A stretch of 64,000 nt of DNA from Vairimorpha necatrix (taxonomy: Eukaryota). The stretch spans positions 1,054,001 through 1,118,000 of the forward strand of contig CP142731.1 of NCBI GenBank assembly GCA_036630325.1. Direction: 5' to 3'. The position numbers and the translations under genes were made by a program. Shown here one piece after another: positions 1 through 57,900 of the stretch (positions are counted from its first letter, which is position 1; every line of letters begins with the position of its first letter). The notes under the pieces were generated by a model that was not told where the DNA came from, did not search any database, and saw only the letters and a program-made list of their open reading frames with translations.

Positions 1-4
1 AGAG

Positions 5-2962
5 TTGGATGGAGTAGATGAGTCTCTATGGAAGGCAAGAATTTATGAAATGGGTTCGGAAGAAGTAAAGAACTTTATGGTAGAAAGAATTAAAAAAGAA
101 GATAGTTGGTCCTTAATTATTGAAGAAATGGAAAAGGAGGTTAGAAAAGACGAATTAAAAAAGAAGGAAGAAGAAGACAAAAGTAAGATGATGGAAATAA
201 TTGCAGAGTCGGTTAGAGGAACAGTTCGAGAGGAGCTGGCAAATAGAGGAGCATTAGGAAAAATAAGGGAAGAAACTTCGGGAGTAAGAAGTAGAGATTG
301 TTTTTACTGTGGTAGATTTAGGCACATGGCAAGAGATTGCTTCGTAAGGAAGAGGAAAGAAGAAGATAATAAAAATAAACATTTTAACAAGTATTTAATT
401 GTTCATGAAGAGAGTGGATCTACAAGCACAGAACTTAGCGCACAAGAATATAGGAAATGCGGAGAAGCAAAACGTAAACAAAATTCAAAAAGGAGAGGAA
501 TGAGAGAGGATAGAATAGAAGAGGGCCTTGTCATTGAAGATATAAAAGCGAAGTTTAGAGAAATTTTTGACTTGCAGCAGGAAGAGATCGTACACTGTAA
601 GATAGAGAAATGTAAAATTGAGACGCCACCAGGGAAAAAAGTAGTTAAAAGAGGACAAACTATCCCACAGGCGTTGATGGAAAAAACTGAAAAATATATA
701 AAAAGTTTGGAAGAAAGAAAGATTATAAGAAGATCAACATCCGAGTGGAGGAACCCAATTAGAGCTATAGTAAAACCTAACGGAGGAGTAAGGCTTGTAA
801 GTAATCTAATGAGTTTAAATGACTTAGTTGAAAAAGATCCGTATGAGTTGTCAAATATTAGGGACATCGTTAGAGCCACACAGGGGTCTAAATGGTTTAC
901 CGTTATAGATCTGAAGGAAGGCTTTTACCACGTAGAGATTGAAGAAGAGGATAAGCACAAAACGGCCTTTGAATTTAACAGAAAGGTATATGAATGGAAC
1001 AGTATGGTAATGGGATATAAAAATTCCCCGCAGATTTTACAACGAATAATGAACCAAATATTTGAAGATTTACAAGGAGAAGGAGTGGAGGTATATATGG
1101 ACGACATCGTTATACACGCTAGAACTAAAAGAAGGCATGACAAGCTAGTTATAGAAGCATTGGAAAGATTAAAAAGACATAAAATGAGATTGAATATTGA
1201 GAAGATACAGTTTAGCCAACAGTTAGTTAAGCTCTTAGGAGTCACATTGAATGGTACAGATATTGAAGCGAATGAAATAAAGAAGAACGAGGCGTTGGAA
1301 TTCCCGCAGCCGACAAGTGTAAGTGAAACACGAAGATTCCTAGGAATGACAGGATGGTTTAGGAACTTTATAAAGAATTACGCGGGATTAACTATTCATC
1401 TGACAGATAGCTTGAGAGGTAAAGATAAGAAGTGGGAATGGACGGTTGAAATGAATAGAGAGTTTTTAGAGCTGAAAGAAGTTTTGAGAGCGATGGGGAA
1501 ACTTAGATTGCCTGATTATAGGAAGGAATTTATATTGAGAACGGACGCGAGCAATGTAGGGATAGGAGCCGTGTTACTTCAGAAGAACGATAAAGATGAA
1601 TGGGTAGCAATCCAATGGAGTTCAAAAAAGTTAACACCTACAGAGACCAGATATACTATATCGGAGAAAGAAATGTACGCGGTATTTTGGGGGATAAAAA
1701 GATTTGAATACGAGTTGCGCGGTAGGAAGTTTAAAATCGAGACGGACCATAAAGCCTTGGTTGAGATTAGAAATAAACCGTGTTTTAATAACAATAGAAT
1801 AAATAGATGGATTGAAAAGATCCAGGAATTTGACTTCACCATAGAATATAAGAAACCAGAAGAAATGGTGGTGGCTGACGCGTTAAGCAGGATACATATG
1901 GAAGACGATGAAAAGAAAAAGAAAATCAGAGAAAGGACCGCCAAGCAGATAGAGGGTAAATGGAAAGCGCACGTCGATGACGCAGAAGGAAAAAAATATT
2001 GGAGATTTGATTCAGGACGGAAAGTCGAGATACCACCAGAAGAGTCGAGGGAAAGTTTGATGCAGGAATACCACGAAAAAGTTGGACATAGATGTATGAC
2101 AAGTGTATATTACGCGATGCGGGAAAGATTTTATTGGCCCGGAATAAAGAAAGACATAAATGAGACAATACGAAAGTGTGTACAATGTCAAATATATAAT
2201 AGAAAAAGACTCGGTGGATGTGAGTTTGTAGATACTACACGTTATTTAGAAAAGGTTGCTTTGGATCTCATTGATTTTAGAGACGCAGGTAAATACGTAT
2301 TGGTTGCGATAGATTATTACACTCGAAGAGTATGGGGCACGGTAATGGAGAACAAGACTGGAAAGAATGTGACAGAATTTTTAAGTAAGTTGTGTGAACA
2401 AGGAAAAAAGCCCGAAGAGATTATAACGGATAATGGGCGAGAATTTATCAATGAGGGGTTTAGAGAGTTGTGTAACAGACTAGAAATTAAACATAGGAAA
2501 GTAAGTGTCGAATCACACAGGAGTAATGGCAGAGTCGAGAGGGTTATAGGTACGCTGCGAGAGAGCATTCTGAAGACTAAAGAAGGTACATTTGCAGAGA
2601 AGGTCATGGGAAGCATTGAAAAATATAATATGAGTTACCACACGGCACTAAAATGTACACCAATAGAAGCGACAGAGGATAAAACTGGACATGTAATGAT
2701 TGAAAATAGCCCACAGGGGAAATATGGAAAACTGTTTAACAGGGGGAAACGGGAAAAATTTAAAGTAGGTGAGTACGTGAGAGTAGCTAAGAAGGAAAAC
2801 TTGAAAGGTGCGGATAAATATTCGAAAGGTAGGTTTTTAGAGAGTGGGAAAATTATAGAGAGATGTGGCAATGATTCTTATATAGTTAAGTTAGTAAATG
2901 GAAGATATGTAAAGAAAAGGCACTATGATCTAAAAAGTCTGCTTGGGTTAAGGATAAAGTGA
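5..2962 (+). CDS. Gag-Pol polyprotein, 5'-partial (zinc knuckle, RT, RNase H, integrase)
   Basis: CFYCGRFRHMARDC knuckle; RT motifs IDLKEGFYH and YMDD; RNase H TDAS...EKE...TDH...ADALSR; integrase HHCC (HEKVGH...CVQC) and DDE (LDLID, TDNGREF, NGRVER). RT-RH-IN order is Ty3/gypsy type. Confidence 0.96.
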   Translation: MDGVDESLWKARIYEMGSEEVKNFMVERIKKEDSWSLIIEEMEKEVRKDELKKKEEEDKSKMMEIIAESVRGTVREELANRGALGKIREETSGVRSRDCFYCGRFRHMARDCFVRKRKEEDNKNKHFNKYLIVHEESGSTSTELSAQEYRKCGEAKRKQNSKRRGMREDRIEEGLVIEDIKAKFREIFDLQQEEIVHCKIEKCKIETPPGKKVVKRGQTIPQALMEKTEKYIKSLEERKIIRRSTSEWRNPIRAIVKPNGGVRLVSNLMSLNDLVEKDPYELSNIRDIVRATQGSKWFTVIDLKEGFYHVEIEEEDKHKTAFEFNRKVYEWNSMVMGYKNSPQILQRIMNQIFEDLQGEGVEVYMDDIVIHARTKRRHDKLVIEALERLKRHKMRLNIEKIQFSQQLVKLLGVTLNGTDIEANEIKKNEALEFPQPTSVSETRRFLGMTGWFRNFIKNYAGLTIHLTDSLRGKDKKWEWTVEMNREFLELKEVLRAMGKLRLPDYRKEFILRTDASNVGIGAVLLQKNDKDEWVAIQWSSKKLTPTETRYTISEKEMYAVFWGIKRFEYELRGRKFKIETDHKALVEIRNKPCFNNNRINRWIEKIQEFDFTIEYKKPEEMVVADALSRIHMEDDEKKKKIRERTAKQIEGKWKAHVDDAEGKKYWRFDSGRKVEIPPEESRESLMQEYHEKVGHRCMTSVYYAMRERFYWPGIKKDINETIRKCVQCQIYNRKRLGGCEFVDTTRYLEKVALDLIDFRDAGKYVLVAIDYYTRRVWGTVMENKTGKNVTEFLSKLCEQGKKPEEIITDNGREFINEGFRELCNRLEIKHRKVSVESHRSNGRVERVIGTLRESILKTKEGTFAEKVMGSIEKYNMSYHTALKCTPIEATEDKTGHVMIENSPQGKYGKLFNRGKREKFKVGEYVRVAKKENLKGADKYSKGRFLESGKIIERCGNDSYIVKLVNGRYVKKRHYDLKSLLGLRIK

Positions 2963-2985
2963 GACTAACCGTCTTGGAGGGGGGA

Positions 2986-3033
2986 TGTTATATATTTTGA
3001 TAATTTTTACCCCCATTATGATAAATAAATACA
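2986..3033 (+). repeat. 3' LTR (48 bp)
   Basis: TGTTATATATTTTGATAATTTTTACCCCCATTATGATAAATAAATACA, directly after the PPT. Confidence 0.95.
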
Positions 3034-3217
3034 TAAAATAATTTTTGGGGGTTTTATAGAAAAAATCTCTTTTTTTTTCAAATACCAAGATTTTTTAATA
3101 TTAATTTTTATTGGAATATTTTTTATACGATTTTAACAGTAGAACCTTTTTAAGTAAACTTGTAAAAAATCTGTTCTAGATACATTTAATCTATAAAGCT
3201 AAAAAAATTTTTGTTTG

Positions 3218-4174
3218 CTAATTCAACTTTATTCCATATTGATTTCTAAGTATTTGAAGATCCGATATGATTGCCGAACAATAATAGCCAATTCTTTTCA
3301 ATCTCCCAAATATAAATTTCAATCTCTTTCTTATTAGTCTTAACGCATATGTTTCATCAAAAGCTAATTTATATCCACATCCTCTTTTAAAATTCAATGC
3401 GAAAATATCAAACTTCGTGATTATTTTGTATTGTTTATCTAAAATTTCAAGTCTTTCATATAATTTGACGTATATTGACATTAATATATGACTCGTGTAT
3501 TTGTAACGTTGTTGGTTAGGCAACATATCATTTATATAATCAATACAAAGTTTAAAAAGATTAAATTGCACACATAACGATTTCTTAGACTTTCTTTTAT
3601 CAGGAAAATTATTTATGACATTATTAATTTTATCCAAGTTTACAAACAATTCATATTTAAACCGGAAAAAAATGTCAGTAATCACATGTCGATTTTTAAG
3701 ATATCTTTTTAGTATTTTTGATGAACCATCGCAAATTAGTTTCATGACATGCAATTTAATTTGTTTATCTTCTAAATCCCAGTTACCAATTTGAACCTGA
3801 AGTTTCTCCAATACAGATTCCCATTCTGTTTTTATTGTCTCTTTTTTTTTAATATTTTTGTCATGATTTGATTTCTCATTCTGTATTTTCGTATTCTCAC
3901 ATACGCGTTTAGGGCTAGTGATAGAATAATCTTTTGTATGAGCAATTACAGATTTCAAACGACAACTCTGTGTTGATGCCGACACATTATTAGAATTTGG
4001 TATATTACAAGATAATTTTCTTTTTTTAAAAGGAAGTGTTTGTTCATCTGGATTTGCAATAGGTATTGTTTGTTTTTTGTTAAATTGTAATGACAGATCA
4101 ACTTGTAATGGATTTGATTCATATGATTTATTTATAATTTCAGCGCATGTTACTAAAAAAAGGTATACAAGCAT
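3218..4174 (-). CDS. Putative secreted protein, family A paralog 1 (318 aa)
   Basis: Short hydrophobic N-terminus, LPFKKRK at residue 47, shared W...I..W..ED and FKLCIDYI...YERL blocks; AACCCTATT before the ATG. Confidence 0.88.
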   Translation of the reverse strand: MLVYLFLVTCAEIINKSYESNPLQVDLSLQFNKKQTIPIANPDEQTLPFKKRKLSCNIPNSNNVSASTQSCRLKSVIAHTKDYSITSPKRVCENTKIQNEKSNHDKNIKKKETIKTEWESVLEKLQVQIGNWDLEDKQIKLHVMKLICDGSSKILKRYLKNRHVITDIFFRFKYELFVNLDKINNVINNFPDKRKSKKSLCVQFNLFKLCIDYINDMLPNQQRYKYTSHILMSIYVKLYERLEILDKQYKIITKFDIFALNFKRGCGYKLAFDETYALRLIRKRLKFIFGRLKRIGYYCSAIISDLQILRNQYGIKLN

Positions 4175-4729
4175 AATAGGGTTAATAATATTTTATATAT
4201 TAAAAATAATGAATATGTTTAATTATATTATAAAATTAAATAACATCTTTTCAAAAAGTCAAAATATACATGGTCGATTTTTTTTTGAATGTCAAAACAT
4301 AGAACTCTAAAACTAACTTTTTAGAATCTGTCCTTTACCATATGTATTTAGTAAGGGAATTGGATAAATTCAGCCCTCATTGAAATTTTATACGTCGATT
4401 TAAGGCAAACACAATTTAAAATGTGCAATTTATACATATTGCACTATAAAATTTATTTAGAACTATATTTAATATTCTTATATTAAAACACATTTATTTC
4501 TTTACGTAAATCATTATTCCATCTTAAGTTAAAATTACAATTTAAACACGTATCCCTTCATGTACATTCTTTTTGATTGTTAGTAAAATAATTTTTTAAA
4601 CTTTATATAGTAAAAATAAAATAATTAAATACTTATACAAGTACAATCGTTCTATTTTCATATGTTTTGATATTTATTTAAAACTCACAAATACAATTAA
4701 ACTATTGAAACTATTATCGGAGTTATTTC

Positions 4730-9511: not shown

Positions 9512-10468
9512 TTATTTTGACCAATAATGATTTTTTTCATTTTCTGTTCTTACATCTTCAAGATTTGACACGATTATTTTACAATCTTTTCTGAGTTTCT
9601 TCAAATACCGATATAAACTTTTTATTTTTATTTCTATCTTTCTTAATGGCTTTATTTCATGATTTTGCGATGAGTTAATACATCTCATTTGCAATATATT
9701 ATTCAAAATTCCAATCTTTTTGATTAAATTAAATTCTGTATATAAGAAGTCGAGTCGTTCATACATTTTTCCGTAAATTGAAATTAAAAATGAAGTATGA
9801 TATAGGTATTGTACTTTGGTAGATGACGCCATATTTGATATGTAGTCAATGCAAAGTTTAAAAAAATGAATTTGGTCGTATAACAATTTTTCTTCTTTTT
9901 TTATATTTTGTTGGTTTTCTATAAAATTCTTGATTTCAATGTATTCATCCTCTGATTTAATATTAAATTTATGAAAATACCCTGCAATTTTTATTCTGGT
10001 TGATTTATAAATAGCTAGTTCCTTTGGTACAGTGGCATTAACAATTTTAAAATTGTCCCTTTTTACCTTTCCGTCTTCATCATTCCATTCTTTAATTTTT
10101 CTTTCTAATGTCTGAACTAACAATTTCCAATCATCACCAGTCCTCGGATTTTTTTCATTATCATTATTTATATTTTGACTTGTGTCTTTACACTTTACTT
10201 TTATATTCTCACAATCTCTTTCGGAAAAATTATCTTTAGTGTCATTATTTTCTAAAAATATTGGTTTTGAATGACAACTTTCTGTTGTCTTCCAGAAAAC
10301 ATATAATCCCTTTCTTTTTTTAAATGGTAGATTTTTATCATCCATTAATGTGTATGTTGACGTTCTCTTTTGATTATATTGTGCCAAACTATCTGATTGC
10401 GCAATTTGTGATTCGTCTGTTTGATTAAAAGATTTGGTACATATCGTTAAAAAGATATATTGAAACAT
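9512..10468 (-). CDS. Putative secreted protein, family A paralog 2 (318 aa)
   Basis: Signal-like MFQYIFLTIC, LPFKKRK at residue 47, AAATTTGCACCCCTAAT before the ATG, AATAAA overlapping the stop. Confidence 0.9.
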   Translation of the reverse strand: MFQYIFLTICTKSFNQTDESQIAQSDSLAQYNQKRTSTYTLMDDKNLPFKKRKGLYVFWKTTESCHSKPIFLENNDTKDNFSERDCENIKVKCKDTSQNINNDNEKNPRTGDDWKLLVQTLERKIKEWNDEDGKVKRDNFKIVNATVPKELAIYKSTRIKIAGYFHKFNIKSEDEYIEIKNFIENQQNIKKEEKLLYDQIHFFKLCIDYISNMASSTKVQYLYHTSFLISIYGKMYERLDFLYTEFNLIKKIGILNNILQMRCINSSQNHEIKPLRKIEIKIKSLYRYLKKLRKDCKIIVSNLEDVRTENEKNHYWSK

Positions 10469-10598
10469 ATTAGGGGTGCAAATTTTTTATATAGTATTTA
10501 TCAAAAGAATTTTTTGAAAAGCAAAAATTTTACAAAACTGCTTTTATGTTAAATATACGTGTTTGAATAACAACTATAAAAATTAAAAAACGTCCATA

Positions 10599-12250: not shown

Positions 12251-12689
12251 TTTTCGTTTCTCTCTAAGAGCCATCCTTTAAAGAAAAAAAAGGTCCAGCT
12301 CAGATCGTTGCCCAAAATATAAATTTAACTTTTGAAATTTTAAAATTACATAGACGCCCATTTAAGCAACATTATTTACAATCCTAGAAGCTTATTTTCG
12401 TCCCGCGAAAGAAAATCATATAAATTATTCTTTATAGTTAATCAGATGATTTTACATGTTTACCTTAAGACTATTGTTGCATATAATCGTATCTGCAAAA
12501 AAAAATATTTAAGTTCGGAAAATTTGTGAGTTTCTTCTATATTTATCTAAAAATTTTTTTAGATAAAATGGAATATAATAAAAAAGATAACCTTTTTTTT
12601 AATTAATCCACATAGTACTACAAGACGAAATAACTCACAATAAATCAAAATCATTTTTTTTCATGTATTAATAGATATATGATCTTATA

Positions 12690-17019: not shown

Positions 17020-17970
17020 TTAGTCAACTAATTTTTTTTCTTTTTTTGTTCTCATTACTTCAAGATTTGACACAATTCGCTTACAATCTTCTTCGAGTCT
17101 TTCCAAATACCGATATAAAGAATTTAATTTTTTTTCTATCTTTCTTAATGGCTTTATTTCATGATTTAGCGATACATTCAGACATCTCATTTGCAATAAT
17201 TTGTTCAAAATTTCAATCTTTTCAATTAGATTAAATTCTTTATATAAGAAGTCGAGTCGTTCATACATTTTCCCGTAAACTGAAATTAAAAATGAAGTAT
17301 TGTGGCGGTATTTTACTTGGGTTGATGACGCCATATTGATTATGTAGTCAATGCAAAGTTTAAAAAAAAGAATTTGGTCGTATAACAATTTTTTTTTCAT
17401 TTTCATGTTTTGATAGTTTTTTATGAATTTCTTGATTTCAATGTATTCATTGTTTAAATTTTTATAAAATTTATAAAAATAGTTATAAATTGATTTTTTG
17501 GTTGATTTATAAATAGCAAGTTCCTTTGGTGCACTTGCATTCACTTTTATAAAATTGTTATCTTTTACCTTATTGTCTTCGTCATTCCATTCTTTAATTT
17601 TTCTTTCTAGTGTCTGAACTAACAATTTCCAATCATCCCCAGAGTTATGAATTTTTTCATTATTATTATTATTAATTTGACTTGTGTCTTTAGACTTTAT
17701 TCTTTTATTCCCAGAATCTACTTCGGGAAGATTATCTTTAGTGTCATTGGATTCTAAGAATACTGGTTTTAAATGACAACTTTGTGTTGCCTTACATAAA
17801 ACATATAATTTCTTTCTTTTTTTAAATGGTAAATTTTTATCATCCATTAATGTGTATGTTGACGTTTTGTTTTGATTATATTGTGCCAAACTATCTGATT
17901 GCGCAATTTGTGATTCGTCTGTCTGATTAAAAGATCTAGTACATATCGTTAAAAAAATATATTGAAACAT
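17020..17970 (-). CDS. Putative secreted protein, family A paralog 3 (316 aa)
   Basis: Close paralog of 9512-10468; LPFKKRK at residue 47; CCCC motif before the ATG. Confidence 0.9.
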   Translation of the reverse strand: MFQYIFLTICTRSFNQTDESQIAQSDSLAQYNQNKTSTYTLMDDKNLPFKKRKKLYVLCKATQSCHLKPVFLESNDTKDNLPEVDSGNKRIKSKDTSQINNNNNEKIHNSGDDWKLLVQTLERKIKEWNDEDNKVKDNNFIKVNASAPKELAIYKSTKKSIYNYFYKFYKNLNNEYIEIKKFIKNYQNMKMKKKLLYDQILFFKLCIDYIINMASSTQVKYRHNTSFLISVYGKMYERLDFLYKEFNLIEKIEILNKLLQMRCLNVSLNHEIKPLRKIEKKLNSLYRYLERLEEDCKRIVSNLEVMRTKKEKKLVD

Positions 17971-18097
17971 ATTAGGGGTGCAAATTTTTTAATAATATAT
18001 CAAAAGAATTTTTTGAAAATCAAAAAAATTACAAAACTGCTTTTATGTTAAATATACGTGTTGGCATCACAACTATAAAAATTAAAAAACGTCCATA

Positions 18098-21538: not shown

Positions 21539-22646
21539 GGTTAAGTTTAGATGGTACCCCCCCCCCCACTTTAAAAAATAAAAAAAAAAAGACAAAACAT
21601 AAATTTATTCAATTAATTCAAAATCAAATTTAGGCGCTAAATCGCAATTTAAAAATGTATGTTATTAATTTCAAAAAAGCTTAACATTTTTTCAAGCAGT
21701 TATTCTCTATAAATTAACTTAAAACGAGCTATATAAAGTTTTCATAGTAGATTAATTAAAAACCATGGCAAGTTCGATCTTTGCGCAATTCCCTTAATAT
21801 AACAGACCACATTCCCTCAATTGTTTGGGCGTGGGCGTCTGTTGTTGAATTTATAAAATTTTGGCTATGATTTACAGTTACATGCAAATAGTTATAATCC
21901 GGACATAGTTCCGAAAACCCTTCATAACCCCGCCAACAATCAGTAATAATTGCAGAACCGGGTGCAATTTTTCGTTTTATTAAATCGACAAGAGTATTTC
22001 TTGATCGATTTTCAACAAATTCGAAAAAAAAGAATTGCTGTCTCCACTTACTACTCCACCAACAGCCCAAACTTGGTATTGAAGGATTATACCGTTATGT
22101 TTTTTACTTATAACAAGCAATGTCTCGTCTATTTCAAATACGCAATTTAAACCACCTAGGGTTTTGTTTTTTATGTAGTTGAAATAGGATAAGAATACAG
22201 CGTTATTAAAACGCGTAAACCAGCGAGATACGGTACTACTATCTATATCCAATTCGATAGTATCCGAAACATTGCTTACACCTTTAACCTATTCACACAG
22301 CAAAATTAAAAGATCTTCGATATCTAATCTAGAACTCTTAAAAATGCTTTGTTTGTAAATGTTACCTTCGTTTGAACATTTTCACCCATTTCGTCGTAAG
22401 TAACAATGATATTTGTCCAAATTATTTTTAATTTTGGTCATGGGTTTCATGCACTTGCTGCACGTCGGTACCTTTATTATATTTCTTTCAAGAAGAAAAA
22501 AAAATAATTCCTCTTTTTTATATATTAATTTTCTAAAATTCTTGATGTTCATTTTAGGGGTATAATTTTATTTCTTTTTATTTTTTTCCCTTTTTTTTAT
22601 TTTTTTAGGGGTTGGGGTTGGGGGGGGGGGGTAACATTGCAACTTA
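21539..22646 (-). mobile_element. Merlin DNA transposon with frameshifted ISXO2-like transposase
   Basis: EIDET, WAVGGV, IITDCWRGY, VNHSQNF, TIEGMW; ATG 22552 after CCCC. Short TIRs with poly-C/poly-G, TSD ACATCTGT (21531-21538 and 22647-22654), empty site near 12073. Confidence 0.92.
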
Positions 22647-22998
22647 ACATCTGTAAAGTTATATAATATCTAGAAAGGAATTAATATGAGGCGATTATGG
22701 ATTTTCGGAATAATATAAACAAAAAAAGAGTCGAATTAATAAAAACATCAAGAGTTACAAAGCACCCTTGATGAATTACAAAGTTCTCAAAGAATAAAAT
22801 GCCAACATGATTTTTTTTTATGTTTCATTCTAAGAGCCATTCTGAAAAGAAAAAAGAAAGTCCAGGCAGAACCGTTGCCCAAAATATACATTATACTTGA
22901 AAAATTTTAAAATTACATGGTGACCATTTATGTAACATTATTTGCAATCCTAGAATCTTATTTCCAGTCAAAGAAGAAACTCATATATATATATATTC

Positions 22999-23790
22999 TT
23001 TTTTTTTTTCTATGCAATTAAGAGTCAAGGGGAAACCTTACATAGGGACCAGAGCGATTTGAGAGTGATCTTCATATTTGATACTGTCAAATTCTAACTC
23101 ACCAAAACTCCTCCATACAACTTGCCGGTGCAGCAAGCTCCGCCGTATCCATTGACATTGGCTCCAGGAGAACACTTTTCATTTATACCTCAAATCGCGT
23201 CCAGAGTGACCTCACGGCGGATATACTTAACGAGCATAGTTATCGTTAACCCGAGGAGAGACATCATCGTACTGACTCAAAGGTCATTACAATCATCTGT
23301 ATTGCACACACGGCTCTTTACACGACCACATTTTAGCCCGCCGGTTTTATTGGGCTGCGTTGACCACCATTCTCCCACTAGTTTCGGCCACCGTGTTACA
23401 GAATCATGTAGGATAGGGTCCACGAGACCTTTTATTACCCCACTTCGTCTAGTCTCTTAGTTAGCTCTAGGATCCCACTCTAGAGTGCACCAGCCATGGG
23501 CTCCAACTATGCCGTACCCATTAGATACTTTTATGTATCATTATATCACCACAAGGGTGATACTGCTTTTTTTGGCTTTGAGGTGCGTTTCTACATTAGA
23601 TGCTAATCTCTTTGTGGCTGGACACACACAAGTTTCATTGAATCAATTTAATGATTATCGTGGACATTTTCATCATCTGAGTTGTTCCAACTGCATAATA
23701 TTAAGTAGAAACCATTTTTGTGCCCCTGGGAATCGAACACAGCATTTGCTCAATTGAAGCATTGCCTTCTACCACTGGGCTAAGGGCACC
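22999..23790 (-). mobile_element. tRNA-headed SINE-like element (~790 bp)
   Basis: tRNA-like head with A and B boxes, GC-richer hairpin-rich body, A11 tail (T11 at 22999-23009 on +). No clear TSD. Confidence 0.7.
23720..23790 (-). ncRNA. tRNA-like Pol III promoter head (not a canonical tRNA)
   Basis: GTGCCC...GGGCAC stem, A box TAGCCCAGTGG, B box GTTCGATTCC; anticodon arm is non-canonical. Confidence 0.75.
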
Positions 23791-53827: not shown

Positions 53828-54930
53828 TAAAAAAAATTTAGAAATTTTTTAACAACACTTTTTTTAGACTAATAATGAGATTAAAATTTTTATTATTTAA
53901 AAAATTAAAAAAACATTTAAAAATATCTATTTAAGTTTTAATAATATTTTTAGACCAGGCGCATTAGATTTTAGGACTTGTATTTAAATTATTATTTGCT
54001 TGATCTTCATTTAAGTTTTTTTTCTAAAAGATTTGCTATATTCTTAATTATGAGCTAATATTCAGCTGTATATTCAAACTTTGCCTTTTGGTTTAATAAT
54101 TTAAAAATAGACATTTTTTAATATAAAATTTGTTATAAAAAAGCAAATGAAACTTGAAAATAAAACTTATAGTCAGCTATTTGCAAATCCTAAAGCTGAT
54201 TCTTGAATAATTGCTAAAATAACTTACTATTTGCAAGTACTCTTTTTATCTATCGCGTCATCATAAGTATTTTCCTTTATAAATATTCATCTAAAAAAAC
54301 GTATCATATTCATAAAACCCCAAATATTTGTTTTTATTTAAATCAAAGTATTATTGTTTTTTTATAATTTTTGATCATAGAATAAATATCAAAAATCAGT
54401 CTAAAGGTCGCTTTATTACTTTTTTTCCTGGGGTTTTAGTTAAAAATCTAAATTAATTTCTGTAGCTAAATTATTTTTTATGTTTAAGGAAAAATGTTTT
54501 TATAAAAATTATTATAGATGCGTACAACAAGACATATGGTTATTAGATACAGACCAGTGGTTATTTGAAGCTCTTTTTTAAAAATTGTTAATTAATTTTA
54601 TCGAAATCTTCGTTATTAAGGCAAGTTATTGAATTTTATTGAGAATTCGTATTTGGATATTTTTTGCTCAATTCATTTATAAATTTTTGTGAAATTTATT
54701 ATTCTATGTATTTAGTTTGAATGATGCAGCCAAATATAGCATAGTTACAAGATAATTCAAGAAAAATATAATATGGGAAGAGTTTTTTTATACATTAAAA
54801 GGTTGCAAAAAAGTACTTTATTTCTCAATTATTTTGAATGAGATTAAAACAATAAAGAATGTATTTATTTATCATAATGGGGGTAAAAATTATCAAAATA
54901 TATAACATCCCCCCTCCAAGACGGTTAGTC

Positions 54931-57900
54931 TCACTTTATCCTTAACCCAAGCAGACTTTTTAGATCATAGTGCCTTTTCTTTACATATCTTCCATTTACT
55001 AACTTAACTATATAAGAATCATTGCCACATCTCTCTATAATTTTCCCACTCTCTAAAAACCTACCTTTCGAATATTTATCCGCACCTTTCAAGTTTTCCT
55101 TCTTAGCTACTCTCACATACTCACCTACTTTAAATTTTTCCCGTTTCCCCCTGTTAAACAGTTTTCCATATTTCCCTTGTGGGCTATTTTCAATCATTAC
55201 ATGTCCAGTTTTATCCTCTGTCGCTTCTATTGGTGTACATTTTAGTGCCGTGTGGTAACTCATATTATATTTTTCAATGCTTCCCATGACCTTCTCTGCA
55301 AATGTACCTTCTTTAGTCTTCAGAATGCTCTCTCGCAGCGTACCTATAACCCTCTCGACTCTGCCATTACTCCTGTGTGATTCGACACTTACTTTCCTAT
55401 GTTTAATTTCTAGTCTGTTACACAACTCTCTAAACCCCTCATTGATAAATTCTCGCCCATTATCCGTTATAATCTCTTCGGGCTTTTTTCCTTGTTCACA
55501 CAACTTACTTAAAAATTCTGTCACATTCTTTCCAGTCTTGTTCTCCATTACCGTGCCCCATACTCTTCGAGTGTAATAATCTATCGCAACCAATACGTAT
55601 TTACCTGCGTCTCTAAAATCAATGAGATCCAAAGCAACCTTTTCTAAATAACGTGTAGTATCTACAAACTCACATCCACCGAGTCTTTTTCTATTATATA
55701 TTTGACATTGTACACACTTTCGAATTGTCTCATTTATGTCCTTCTTTATTCCGGGCCAATAAAATCTTTCCCGCATCGCGTAATATACACTTGTCATACA
55801 TCTATGTCCAACTTTTTCGTGGTATTCCTGCATCAAACTTTCCCTTGACCCTTCTGGTGGTATCTCGACTTTCCGTCCTGAATCAAATCTCCAATATTTT
55901 TTTCCTTCTGCGTCATCGACGTGCGCTTTCCATTTACCCTCTATCTGCTTGGCGGTCCTTTCTCTGATTTTCTTTTTCTTTTCATCGTCTTCCATATGTA
56001 TCCTGCTTAACGCGTCAGCCACCACCATTTCTTCTGGTTTCTTATATTCTATGGTGAAGTCAAATTCCTGGATCTTTTCAATCCATCTATTTATTCTATT
56101 GTTATTAAAACACGGTTTATTTCTAATCTCAACCAAGGCTTTATGGTCCGTCTCGATTTTAAACTTCCTACCGCGCAACTCGTATTCAAATCTTTTTATC
56201 CCCCAAAATACCGCGTACATTTCTTTCTCCGATATAGTATATCTGGTCTCTGTAGGTGTTAACTTTTTTGAACTCCATTGGATTGCTACCCATTCATCTT
56301 TATCGTTCTTCTGAAGTAACACGGCTCCTATCCCTACATTGCTCGCGTCCGTTCTCAATATAAATTCCTTCCTATAATCAGGCAATCTAAGTTTCCCCAT
56401 CGCTCTCAAAACTTCTTTCAGCTCTAAAAACTCTCTATTCATTTCAACCGTCCATTCCCACCTCTTATCTTTACCTCTCAAGCTATCTGTCAGATGAATA
56501 GTTAATCCCGCGTAATTCTTTATAAAGTTCCTAAACCATCCTGTCATTCCTAGGAATCTTCGTGTTTCACTTACACTTGTCGGCTGCGGGAATTCCAACG
56601 CCTCGTTCTTCTTTATTTCATTCGCTTCAATATCTGTACCATTCAATGTGACTCCTAAGAGCTTAACTAACTGTTGGCTAAACTGTATCTTCTCAATATT
56701 CAATCTCATTTTATGTCTTTTTAATCTTTCCAATGCTTCTATAACTAGCTTGTCATGCCTTCTTTTAGTTCTAGCGTGTATAACGATGTCGTCCATATAT
56801 ACCTCCACTCCTTCTCCTTGTAAATCTTCAAATATTTGGTTCATTATTCGTTGTAAAATCTGCGGGGAATTTTCATATCCCATTACCATACTGTTCCATT
56901 CATATACCTTTCTGTTAAATTCAAAGGCCGTTTTGTGCTTATCCTCTTCTTCAATCTCTACGTGGTAAAAGCCTTCCTTCAGATCTATAACGGTAAACCA
57001 TTTAGACCCCTGTGTGGCTCTAACAATGTCCCTAATATTTGACAACTCATACGGATCTTTTTCAACTAAGTCATTTAAACTCATTAGATTACTTACAAGC
57101 CTTACTCCTCCGTTAGGTTTTACTATAGCTCTAATTGGGTTCCTCCACTCGGATGTTGATCTTCTTATAATCTTTCTTTCTTCCAAACTTTTTATATATT
57201 TTTCAGTTTTTTTCATCAACGCCTGTGGGATAGTTTGTCCTCTTTTAACTACTTTTTTCCCTGGTGGCGTCTCAATTTTACATTTCTCTATCTTACAGTG
57301 TACGATCTCTTCCTGCTGTAAGTCGAAAATTTCTCTAAACTTCGCTTTTATATCTTCAATGACAAGGCCCTCTTCTATTCTATCCTCTCTCATTCCTCTC
57401 CTTTTTGAATTTTGTTTACGTTTTGCTTCTCCGCATTTCCTATATTCTTGTGCGCTAAGTTCTGTGCTTGTAGATCCACTCTCTTCATAAACAATTCTAT
57501 ACTTGTTAAAATGTTTATTTTTATTATCTTCTTCTTTCCTCTTCCTTACGAAGCAATCTCTTGCCATGTGCCCAAATCTACCACAGTAAAAACAATCTCT
57601 ACTTCTTACTCTCGTAGTTTCTTCCCTTATTTTTCCTAATGCTCCTCTATTTGCCAGCTCCTCTCGAACTGTTCCTCTAACCGACTCTGCAATTATTTCC
57701 ATCATCTTACTTTTGTCTTCTTCTTCCTTCTTTTTTAATTCGTCCTTTCTAACCTCCTTTTCCATTTCTTCAATAATTAAGGACCAACTATCTTCTTTTT
57801 TAATTCTTTCTACAATAAAGTTCTTTACTTCTTCCGAACCCATTTCATAAATTCTTGCCTTCCATAGAGACTCATCTACTCCATCCAACTCTAGCTTATA

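Follow-up and report, generated by a model that had tools for sequence, protein, structure and literature searches.

Vairimorpha necatrix is a microsporidian parasite of insects. The window analysed here is a stretch of 64,000 nucleotides of its genome, and at positions 23790–22999 it holds a copy of a ~780-nt, tRNA-headed, poly(A)-tailed, non-coding SINE. A preliminary description of this DNA had given the element this span and an A11 tail, and we confirm its coordinates and strand: the element lies on the minus strand, with its first base at 23790 and the A11 tail at 23009–22999. From 5′ to 3′, the copy has a 73-nt head, ~545 nt of body, ~160 nt of tail, and the A11 run. See Table 1 for the coordinates of all parts. 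The G+C content of the copy is 44%, compared with mostly 20–30% elsewhere in the window. It is an ordinary, old, decayed insertion and is probably no longer a good template.

Table 1. Parts of the window SINE copy and its candidate terminator
Feature	Position	Strand	Remarks
Whole SINE copy	22999..23790	-	781 nt + A11; 91.8% identity to family majority sequence; without target-site duplication
tRNA-derived head, 73 nt	23718..23790	-	Nearest tRNA compared is tRNA-Ala(TGC)
Pol III A box	23772..23782	-	From sequence; consensus presumed
Pol III B box core	23729..23738	-	From sequence; consensus presumed
Non-coding body, ~545 nt	23172..23717	-	55–72% per 80-column block to the second, low-copy family
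Remnant of last ~15 codons of LINE-C ORF2	23127..23171	-	By sequence comparison
RNA module 1, hairpin with internal loop over ORF2 end	23142..23162	-	Damaged in window copy by a 1-nt deletion
RNA module 2: T4, 5-bp stem, 7-nt T-loop-like loop	23080..23107	-	One pair broken in window copy
Distal tail	23010..23079	-	Sequence unlike LINE-C; in young copies, predicted to complete the four-way junction of LINE-C
A11 tail	22999..23009	-	
First T5 run downstream, candidate Pol III terminator	22900..22904	-	Putative

We looked for a target-site duplication at the window copy and did not find one, and among the repeats listed for the window there are no LTRs, terminal inverted repeats, or other terminal repeats bounding the SINE. 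The preliminary description had the element begin where homology to a paralogous segment near position 12430 ends. The paralogy is real (12073–12433 matches 22647–23001), but it adjoins the A-tail end of the SINE and not the head. We considered this paralogue as a possible empty site and rejected it, because the sequence past the head does not continue the paralogue; the segment has four genomic matches, none of which continues into the flank beyond the head. Contigs from four sequencing runs cover the SINE, with little or no coverage of its flanks. Elements with terminal inverted repeats lie on both sides of the SINE region, at 21540–22648 and 23939–25204, and the second contains a decayed frame with a motif that we take to be that of Merlin/IS1595-type transposases. 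The window also contains two Ty3-type LTR retrotransposon pol regions (1–3034 and 54859–57892) that are 99.3% identical and inverted relative to each other, as well as dispersed predicted proteins of ~325 aa with similar N-termini (3218–4192, 9512–10486, 17020–17988, 26993–27970, and 32995–34011). The one member of this protein family that was scanned had no Pfam match.

The genome set searched comprises 15.0 Mb in 12 contigs, and a LINE protein encoded in it is 100% identical to a Vairimorpha necatrix record. All of the 40 best-scored of 323 candidate SINE copies match over nearly the full length at 88–100% identity, and the 3′ 20-mer, allowing up to two mismatches, occurs at least 137 times over all 12 contigs, compared with 0 for the control. 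We analysed 90 copies, namely the 30 most similar to the window copy and a further 60 among the first 100 places listed; 79 are full length and 11 are 5′-truncated. Target-site duplications of at least 8 bp were found at 52 of the 90 copies, compared with 23 of 2000 mismatched flank pairs. They are 8–21 bp long with a mode of 14 bp. Besides the window copy, the 38 copies without a duplication include a few whose tails are interrupted and some that are segmental duplicates, as judged from their shared flanks. The SINE reading of the preliminary description, which had left copy number and duplications to be checked, is therefore borne out by the number of copies, the duplications, the A tails, and the 5′-truncated copies.

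Identity to the family majority sequence ranges from 77 to 100%, and the family tree is star-like and shows no conserved founder locus. A young subfamily with 16 members (L016, L018–L020, L023, L025, L027, L029, L030, L228–L231, L239, L245, and L249) has long A tails and a mean difference of 1.0%, and two of its copies at different sites are identical. Of the 26 alignment differences diagnostic of this subfamily, 14 fall in the 73-nt head, and one of these is an A-box variant resembling the A box of V. necatrix Leu and Ser tRNAs; head exchange or promoter selection are possible explanations. The target sites have no consensus beyond base composition, and an apparent lack of A at position −1 is an artefact of how the duplications were extended. 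There is also no targeting near tRNA genes, as 3 of 99 copies lie within 3 kb of one compared with 2.2 expected (one of the 100 listed places was excluded). A second SINE family, low in copy number and with a tRNA-like head distinct from that of the first, is present at L099:6030–6800 and at four other places. Judged from the L099 copy and partial copies, it shares body and 3′ end with the first family at roughly 55–75% per block. Still older SINE relics were seen at L017, L039, L041, L054, L057, and L149.

The head was described as tRNA-like with intact A and B boxes. The A box and the B box core are indeed present, but young copies have a different base just ahead of the B box core. Against the Rfam tRNA model, the window head scores 23.7 bits (E 0.05) and the head of young copy L002 scores 26.6 bits, both below the cut-off of 29. 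ARAGORN makes no tRNA call at the window copy but does so at the heads of 58 of the 79 full-length copies, and 52 of the 79 are called tRNA-Met(CAT). We compared the head with 48 distinct tRNA calls of V. necatrix, a set without His, Tyr, and Val, and found no close counterpart in it; the best true match is Ala(TGC) with a score of 22.5, against a median of 9. “Ile(TAT)” was discarded as a source tRNA, since this top match was itself a SINE head. The head is also the fastest-changing part of the SINE, at 0.088 compared with 0.042 for the body.

The A and B boxes suggest that Pol III would transcribe the element from its head. The preliminary description had counted one T4 run against eight runs of A4 or longer in the presumed transcript, a pattern that it would expect if Pol III terminators were avoided. 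The count is correct for the window copy, but the depletion of T runs is within chance (P 0.22), and the A-minus-T run difference has a P of 0.014 in the window copy and 0.075 in L002. The sole internal T4 run of the window copy sits in module 2 of the tail. T4 is the first T run at 16 of the 54 V. necatrix tRNA loci that have a nearby T run (nine further tRNA calls, including at least six SINE heads, have none and fall outside the 54). An internal T4 could therefore stop Pol III, and the polymerase would have to read through this one to reach the 3′ end.

Four hairpins had been listed in support of a structured RNA, and all four exist. However, of the 79 full-length copies only the window copy has the perfect TATCACC/GGTGATA stem; the remaining three hairpins are found in 54, 47, and 39 of these copies. 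The whole window copy folds like its shuffles (z −0.62), contrary to the description of a structured body. In 120-nt windows, the z score is −0.6 to +1.5 across the body, −1.8 in the head, and −3.0 in the tail. The body has no match among 120 LINE proteins, and the SINE match to them is limited to a 15–16-residue ORF2 remnant. The longest ATG frames in two young copies are 37–48 aa. An Rfam scan of the window returned nothing at gathering score and only tRNA-like matches below the cut-off. We tried the body as an RNase P RNA and as a piece of LSU rRNA, and rejected both. It scores 22.5 against the V. necatrix RNase P RNA (shuffle mean 23.3), and it is within shuffles against the stretch directly before a LINE-A array in L210 that we take to be the 3′ part of an LSU rRNA gene. 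The nuclear RNase P RNA gene of V. necatrix itself was located at L358:1501–1740 (G000:C1:842821–843060, minus strand) with 76 bits.

These data bear on the alternative, also raised in the preliminary description, of a novel stand-alone Pol III ncRNA. In its fullest form, a domesticated, structured RNA would serve a host function and the dispersed copies would be its retro-pseudogenes. The heads of young copies still fold as tRNA according to ARAGORN, a young copy has a z score of −2.0 overall and −2.35 for the first half of the body, and the body is kept in the second family at 55–72% per block. Such an RNA nonetheless fits poorly with a star-like tree that has no founder locus, with a head that changes faster than the body, and with a tail that is LINE-derived. 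The better-than-shuffle fold is confined to the first body half of family 1 (z −2.35 and −1.86); the second body half, the whole window copy, and family 2 all fold like shuffles, and there is no likeness to the RNase P RNA of this genome or to Rfam models beyond the sub-cut-off tRNA matches. We therefore consider a domesticated ncRNA very unlikely.

The LINE fragments in the window presumably belong to an R4/Dong-like family, a clade name that we assign from familiar motifs. The preliminary description saw no match between the 3′ end of the SINE and local LINE ends, and our comparison agrees, as the scores of the R4-like ends (30 and 31) stay below the highest shuffle scores (36 and 38). The R4/Dong-like window elements and a second R4-like family, with their T- or TA-rich tails, were therefore rejected as partners. 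LINE-A, an abundant APE-type family with 11 open frames of 1242 aa, was likewise rejected on sequence, since its 3′ end scores 21 against the SINE tail, within shuffles.

A search with LINE-A ORF2 brought up, at 28% identity, a third and rare APE-type family, LINE-C, and the SINE tail matches the end of this family. SINE positions 618–712 align with the LINE-C end at 78.8% over 99 nt (E 1.6e-15). This ~95-nt part of the SINE tail has a local score of 105.5 against LINE-C (101.5 for the window copy), while 300 shuffles reach at most 39. The match covers the last ~15 codons of ORF2 and the 3′ UTR, and in the family sequence the ORF2 remnant is identical to LINE-C at 12 of 15 residues and to its V. 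ceranae relative at 13 of 16. The matching LINE-C lies ~350 kb from the window SINE on the same contig. The G+C contents are also close, at 47.6% for the SINE and 45.5% for LINE-C. Among the best-scored candidates, we found four LINE-C copies, each ending in an A run, and no complete one in the assembly. One copy is open over 1092 aa; its first residue corresponds to residue 231 of a full-length relative, so that the first endonuclease motifs are missing. Its A18 tail and frame without a stop codon suggest a recently active LINE-C source. Of the other three, one is a decayed piece of 2 kb and two are stubs of ~350 bp; the C4 stub is flanked by a ~13-bp duplication with one mismatch.

The nearest labelled relatives of LINE-C are in V. 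ceranae (79%), V. bombi, and Smittium. In a tree that excludes two V. bombi proteins without an anchor, the Vairimorpha pair joins the Smittium elements with moderate support (89/88). It is most improbable that the SINE is an insect-host element that arrived by contamination or recent horizontal transfer. Its G+C content, far above that of the surrounding DNA, and the want of a close V. necatrix tRNA match for its head would suit such an origin. Against this, copies inserted with duplications occur on all 12 contigs and range from 77 to 100% in identity, the tail matches a LINE whose closest kin are those of V. ceranae, V. bombi, and Smittium, and the lepidopteran SINEs described in the relevant part of PMC8010984 are only 252–339 bp long.

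The likeness between the SINE and LINE-C extends beyond the alignable sequence. Folding predictions give the same four-way junction for the final ~105–115 nt of both LINE-C and the young SINE copies, although the last ~70 nt resemble each other only in predicted fold and not in sequence; in the window copy, the junction is lost. A compensatory change in module 1 separates the SINE from LINE-C. As an independent test set, we used 80 metagenome loci with LINE-C relatives at 25–44% protein identity, of which 63 were eligible by having at least 250 nt behind the match. The module 2 pattern, defined by its flanking letters only, occurs at 21 of the 63. At 20 of the 63, its 7-nt loop is closed by five of five pairs, compared with 0 of 17 control matches. 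The loops fit what we take to be the T-loop pattern. For covariation, we aligned 17 of the 20 loci (three near-duplicates were dropped) with one SINE copy and LINE-C. All 95 of 95 cells pair, four of the five pairs show two-sided changes, and the covariation is 0.59, compared with 0.20 when shuffled and at most 0.20 when slid. Module 1 pairs at six of six positions in 13 of the 20 module 2 loci, compared with 9 of 1000 shuffles. The 42 further eligible loci have no strict module 2 match, and several of them appear by eye to carry longer-looped variants. Neither module has a family in Rfam. Within the SINE family, the modules decay at 0.029 and 0.042, compared with 0.042 for the body, about the body rate and as expected for dead copies. 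In one of the metagenome relatives of LINE-C, L278, positions 18–96 give a weak HDV-like ribozyme match (E 0.4, below the cut-off) ~1.4 kb upstream of the matched ORF.

Since the SINE tail derives from a LINE-C end and carries two folded signals common to distant relatives, the LINE-C lineage is the likely copying partner. Overall, we think it probable that this tRNA-derived SINE is a parasite of APE-type non-LTR retrotransposons of the LINE-C lineage. Target-primed reverse transcription is established for LINE/SINE pairs, and the cycle may be pictured accordingly in this species. Directed by the internal A and B boxes, Pol III would start at the head, pass through the body, the internal T4, and the A tail, and presumably end at a downstream T run. 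The SINE RNA would then fold the two 3′ modules that were captured together with the LINE-C ORF2 end and 3′ UTR, for which the homology and covariation above are the evidence. An ORF2 protein of LINE-C type would bind these modules, nick DNA with little sequence preference, and reverse-transcribe from the A tail. The products observed are dispersed copies with A tails and duplications mostly of 11–17 bp.

The enzyme that moves the SINE today would, by this scheme, be of LINE-C type. It is unlikely, although worth weighing, that a tail of LINE-C lineage is now recognised in a relaxed way by LINE-A, which would move the SINE in trans through module 1 or the A tail. LINE-A has its 11 open ORF2 frames while no complete LINE-C was found, and the SINE has near-identical young copies to be accounted for. 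Furthermore, a 14-bp duplication was seen in the one LINE-A case checked, and the LINE-A 3′ UTR contains a module-1-like hairpin with five of six pairs. On the other hand, all 12 LINE-A ends displayed have a T-rich tail, and LINE-A has neither a sequence match to the SINE nor a match to module 2. The open LINE-C copy with its A18 tail also suggests a recently active source of the proper lineage. V. necatrix is described as tetraploid in the part of PMC10759460 concerned, so such a source copy may lie outside the 15-Mb set.

A wider reading is that a deep LINE lineage in fungi, microsporidia, and environmental eukaryotes has a clade-wide, so far undescribed signal for RNA recognition, made up of both modules. 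The signal would consist of a hairpin over the ORF2 stop and a T-loop-bearing junction that mimics the tRNA elbow. The SINE, with a tRNA fold at both ends, would still be spreading in a genome set without a complete partner, supplied by a source on another haplotype or having switched to LINE-A. We put this forward tentatively and with some doubt.

Stringent SINE/LINE pairs, in which tRNA-derived SINEs carry a LINE-derived 3′ tail, are treated in the relevant section of PMC5786205, and PxSE5 with PxLINE1.1 is given as such a pair in that of PMC8010984. As these sources describe them, the pairs resemble ours in having a small-RNA head with Pol III boxes, a body of unknown origin, and a LINE-homologous tail. 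The fold of that tail is thought to be recognised by the LINE protein, and the V. necatrix SINE shares the tail homology. Unlike the pairs described there, our SINE is ~780 nt long, resides in a microsporidian host, and has a tail that includes the last ORF2 codons; its partner is also nearly absent, with at least 137 SINE copies but only four incomplete LINE-C copies found. Long SINEs are known from fungi, and the section of PMC5063351 on them lists MgSINE (472 bp), mgsr1 (800 bp), Egr1 (700 bp), EGH24 (900 bp), and Foxy (~160 copies). Compared by description, these fall in a similar length range, reach tens to ~160 copies, and in several cases have tRNA-derived heads. In contrast to them, as far as that section goes, the LINE lineage that partners the SINE here is closest to elements of Smittium. 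The word microsporidia does not occur in PMC5063351.

For the microsporidia themselves, the repeat table for Nosema bombycis in the main text of PMC3614468 includes a “SINE” entry at 0.18% of the genome. SINE-class repeats have thus been counted in a nosematid genome, but as a single table row, without sequence, anatomy, or partner in that main text. The term “SINE” is absent from the main texts of PMC10759460, PMC12449221, PMC13174016, PMC8206274, and PMC4202319, and the main text of PMC13702014 names it only as a repeat category. In the literature covered, which included few subscription journals and no repeat databases, we found no described microsporidian SINE, SINE/LINE pair, or tail modules, nor any report of the module 2 motif. 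Supplements of the genome papers may contain repeat libraries that include the V. necatrix SINE family.

Two things stand out, namely that a microsporidian has a SINE/LINE pair and that the tail signal, in its two parts, is conserved; the kind of element is otherwise ordinary. LINE-C and the SINE may be the first defined SINE/LINE pair in microsporidia, and they indicate that Pol III retroposons are able to flourish in parasites as reduced as these. With its covarying modules, the tail offers a small, precise target for studying how APE-type ORF2 proteins choose their template. There are also practical sides, as the ARAGORN calls of tRNA-Met(CAT) at SINE heads, young copies among them, can inflate tRNA counts, and the young subfamily may supply insertion markers for strains.

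Several features of the other LINEs were seen along the way. In LINE-A and the two R4-like families (L091–L103 and L124–L164), an AATAAA-like signal is followed on the coding strand by a T- or TA-rich tail and not by poly(A). T-tailed LINE-A copies form a tandem array in L210 (G000:C6:690700–700699), as also seen with L096, L097, and L165, and the open LINE-C copy is located within the L210 array. Finally, a recurrent non-coding unit, made of a distinct ~150-nt 5′ piece and a copy of the LINE-A 3′ UTR, follows LINE-A tails at L091:5600–5960 and in L165 and L098, and is possibly a non-autonomous LINE-A derivative.
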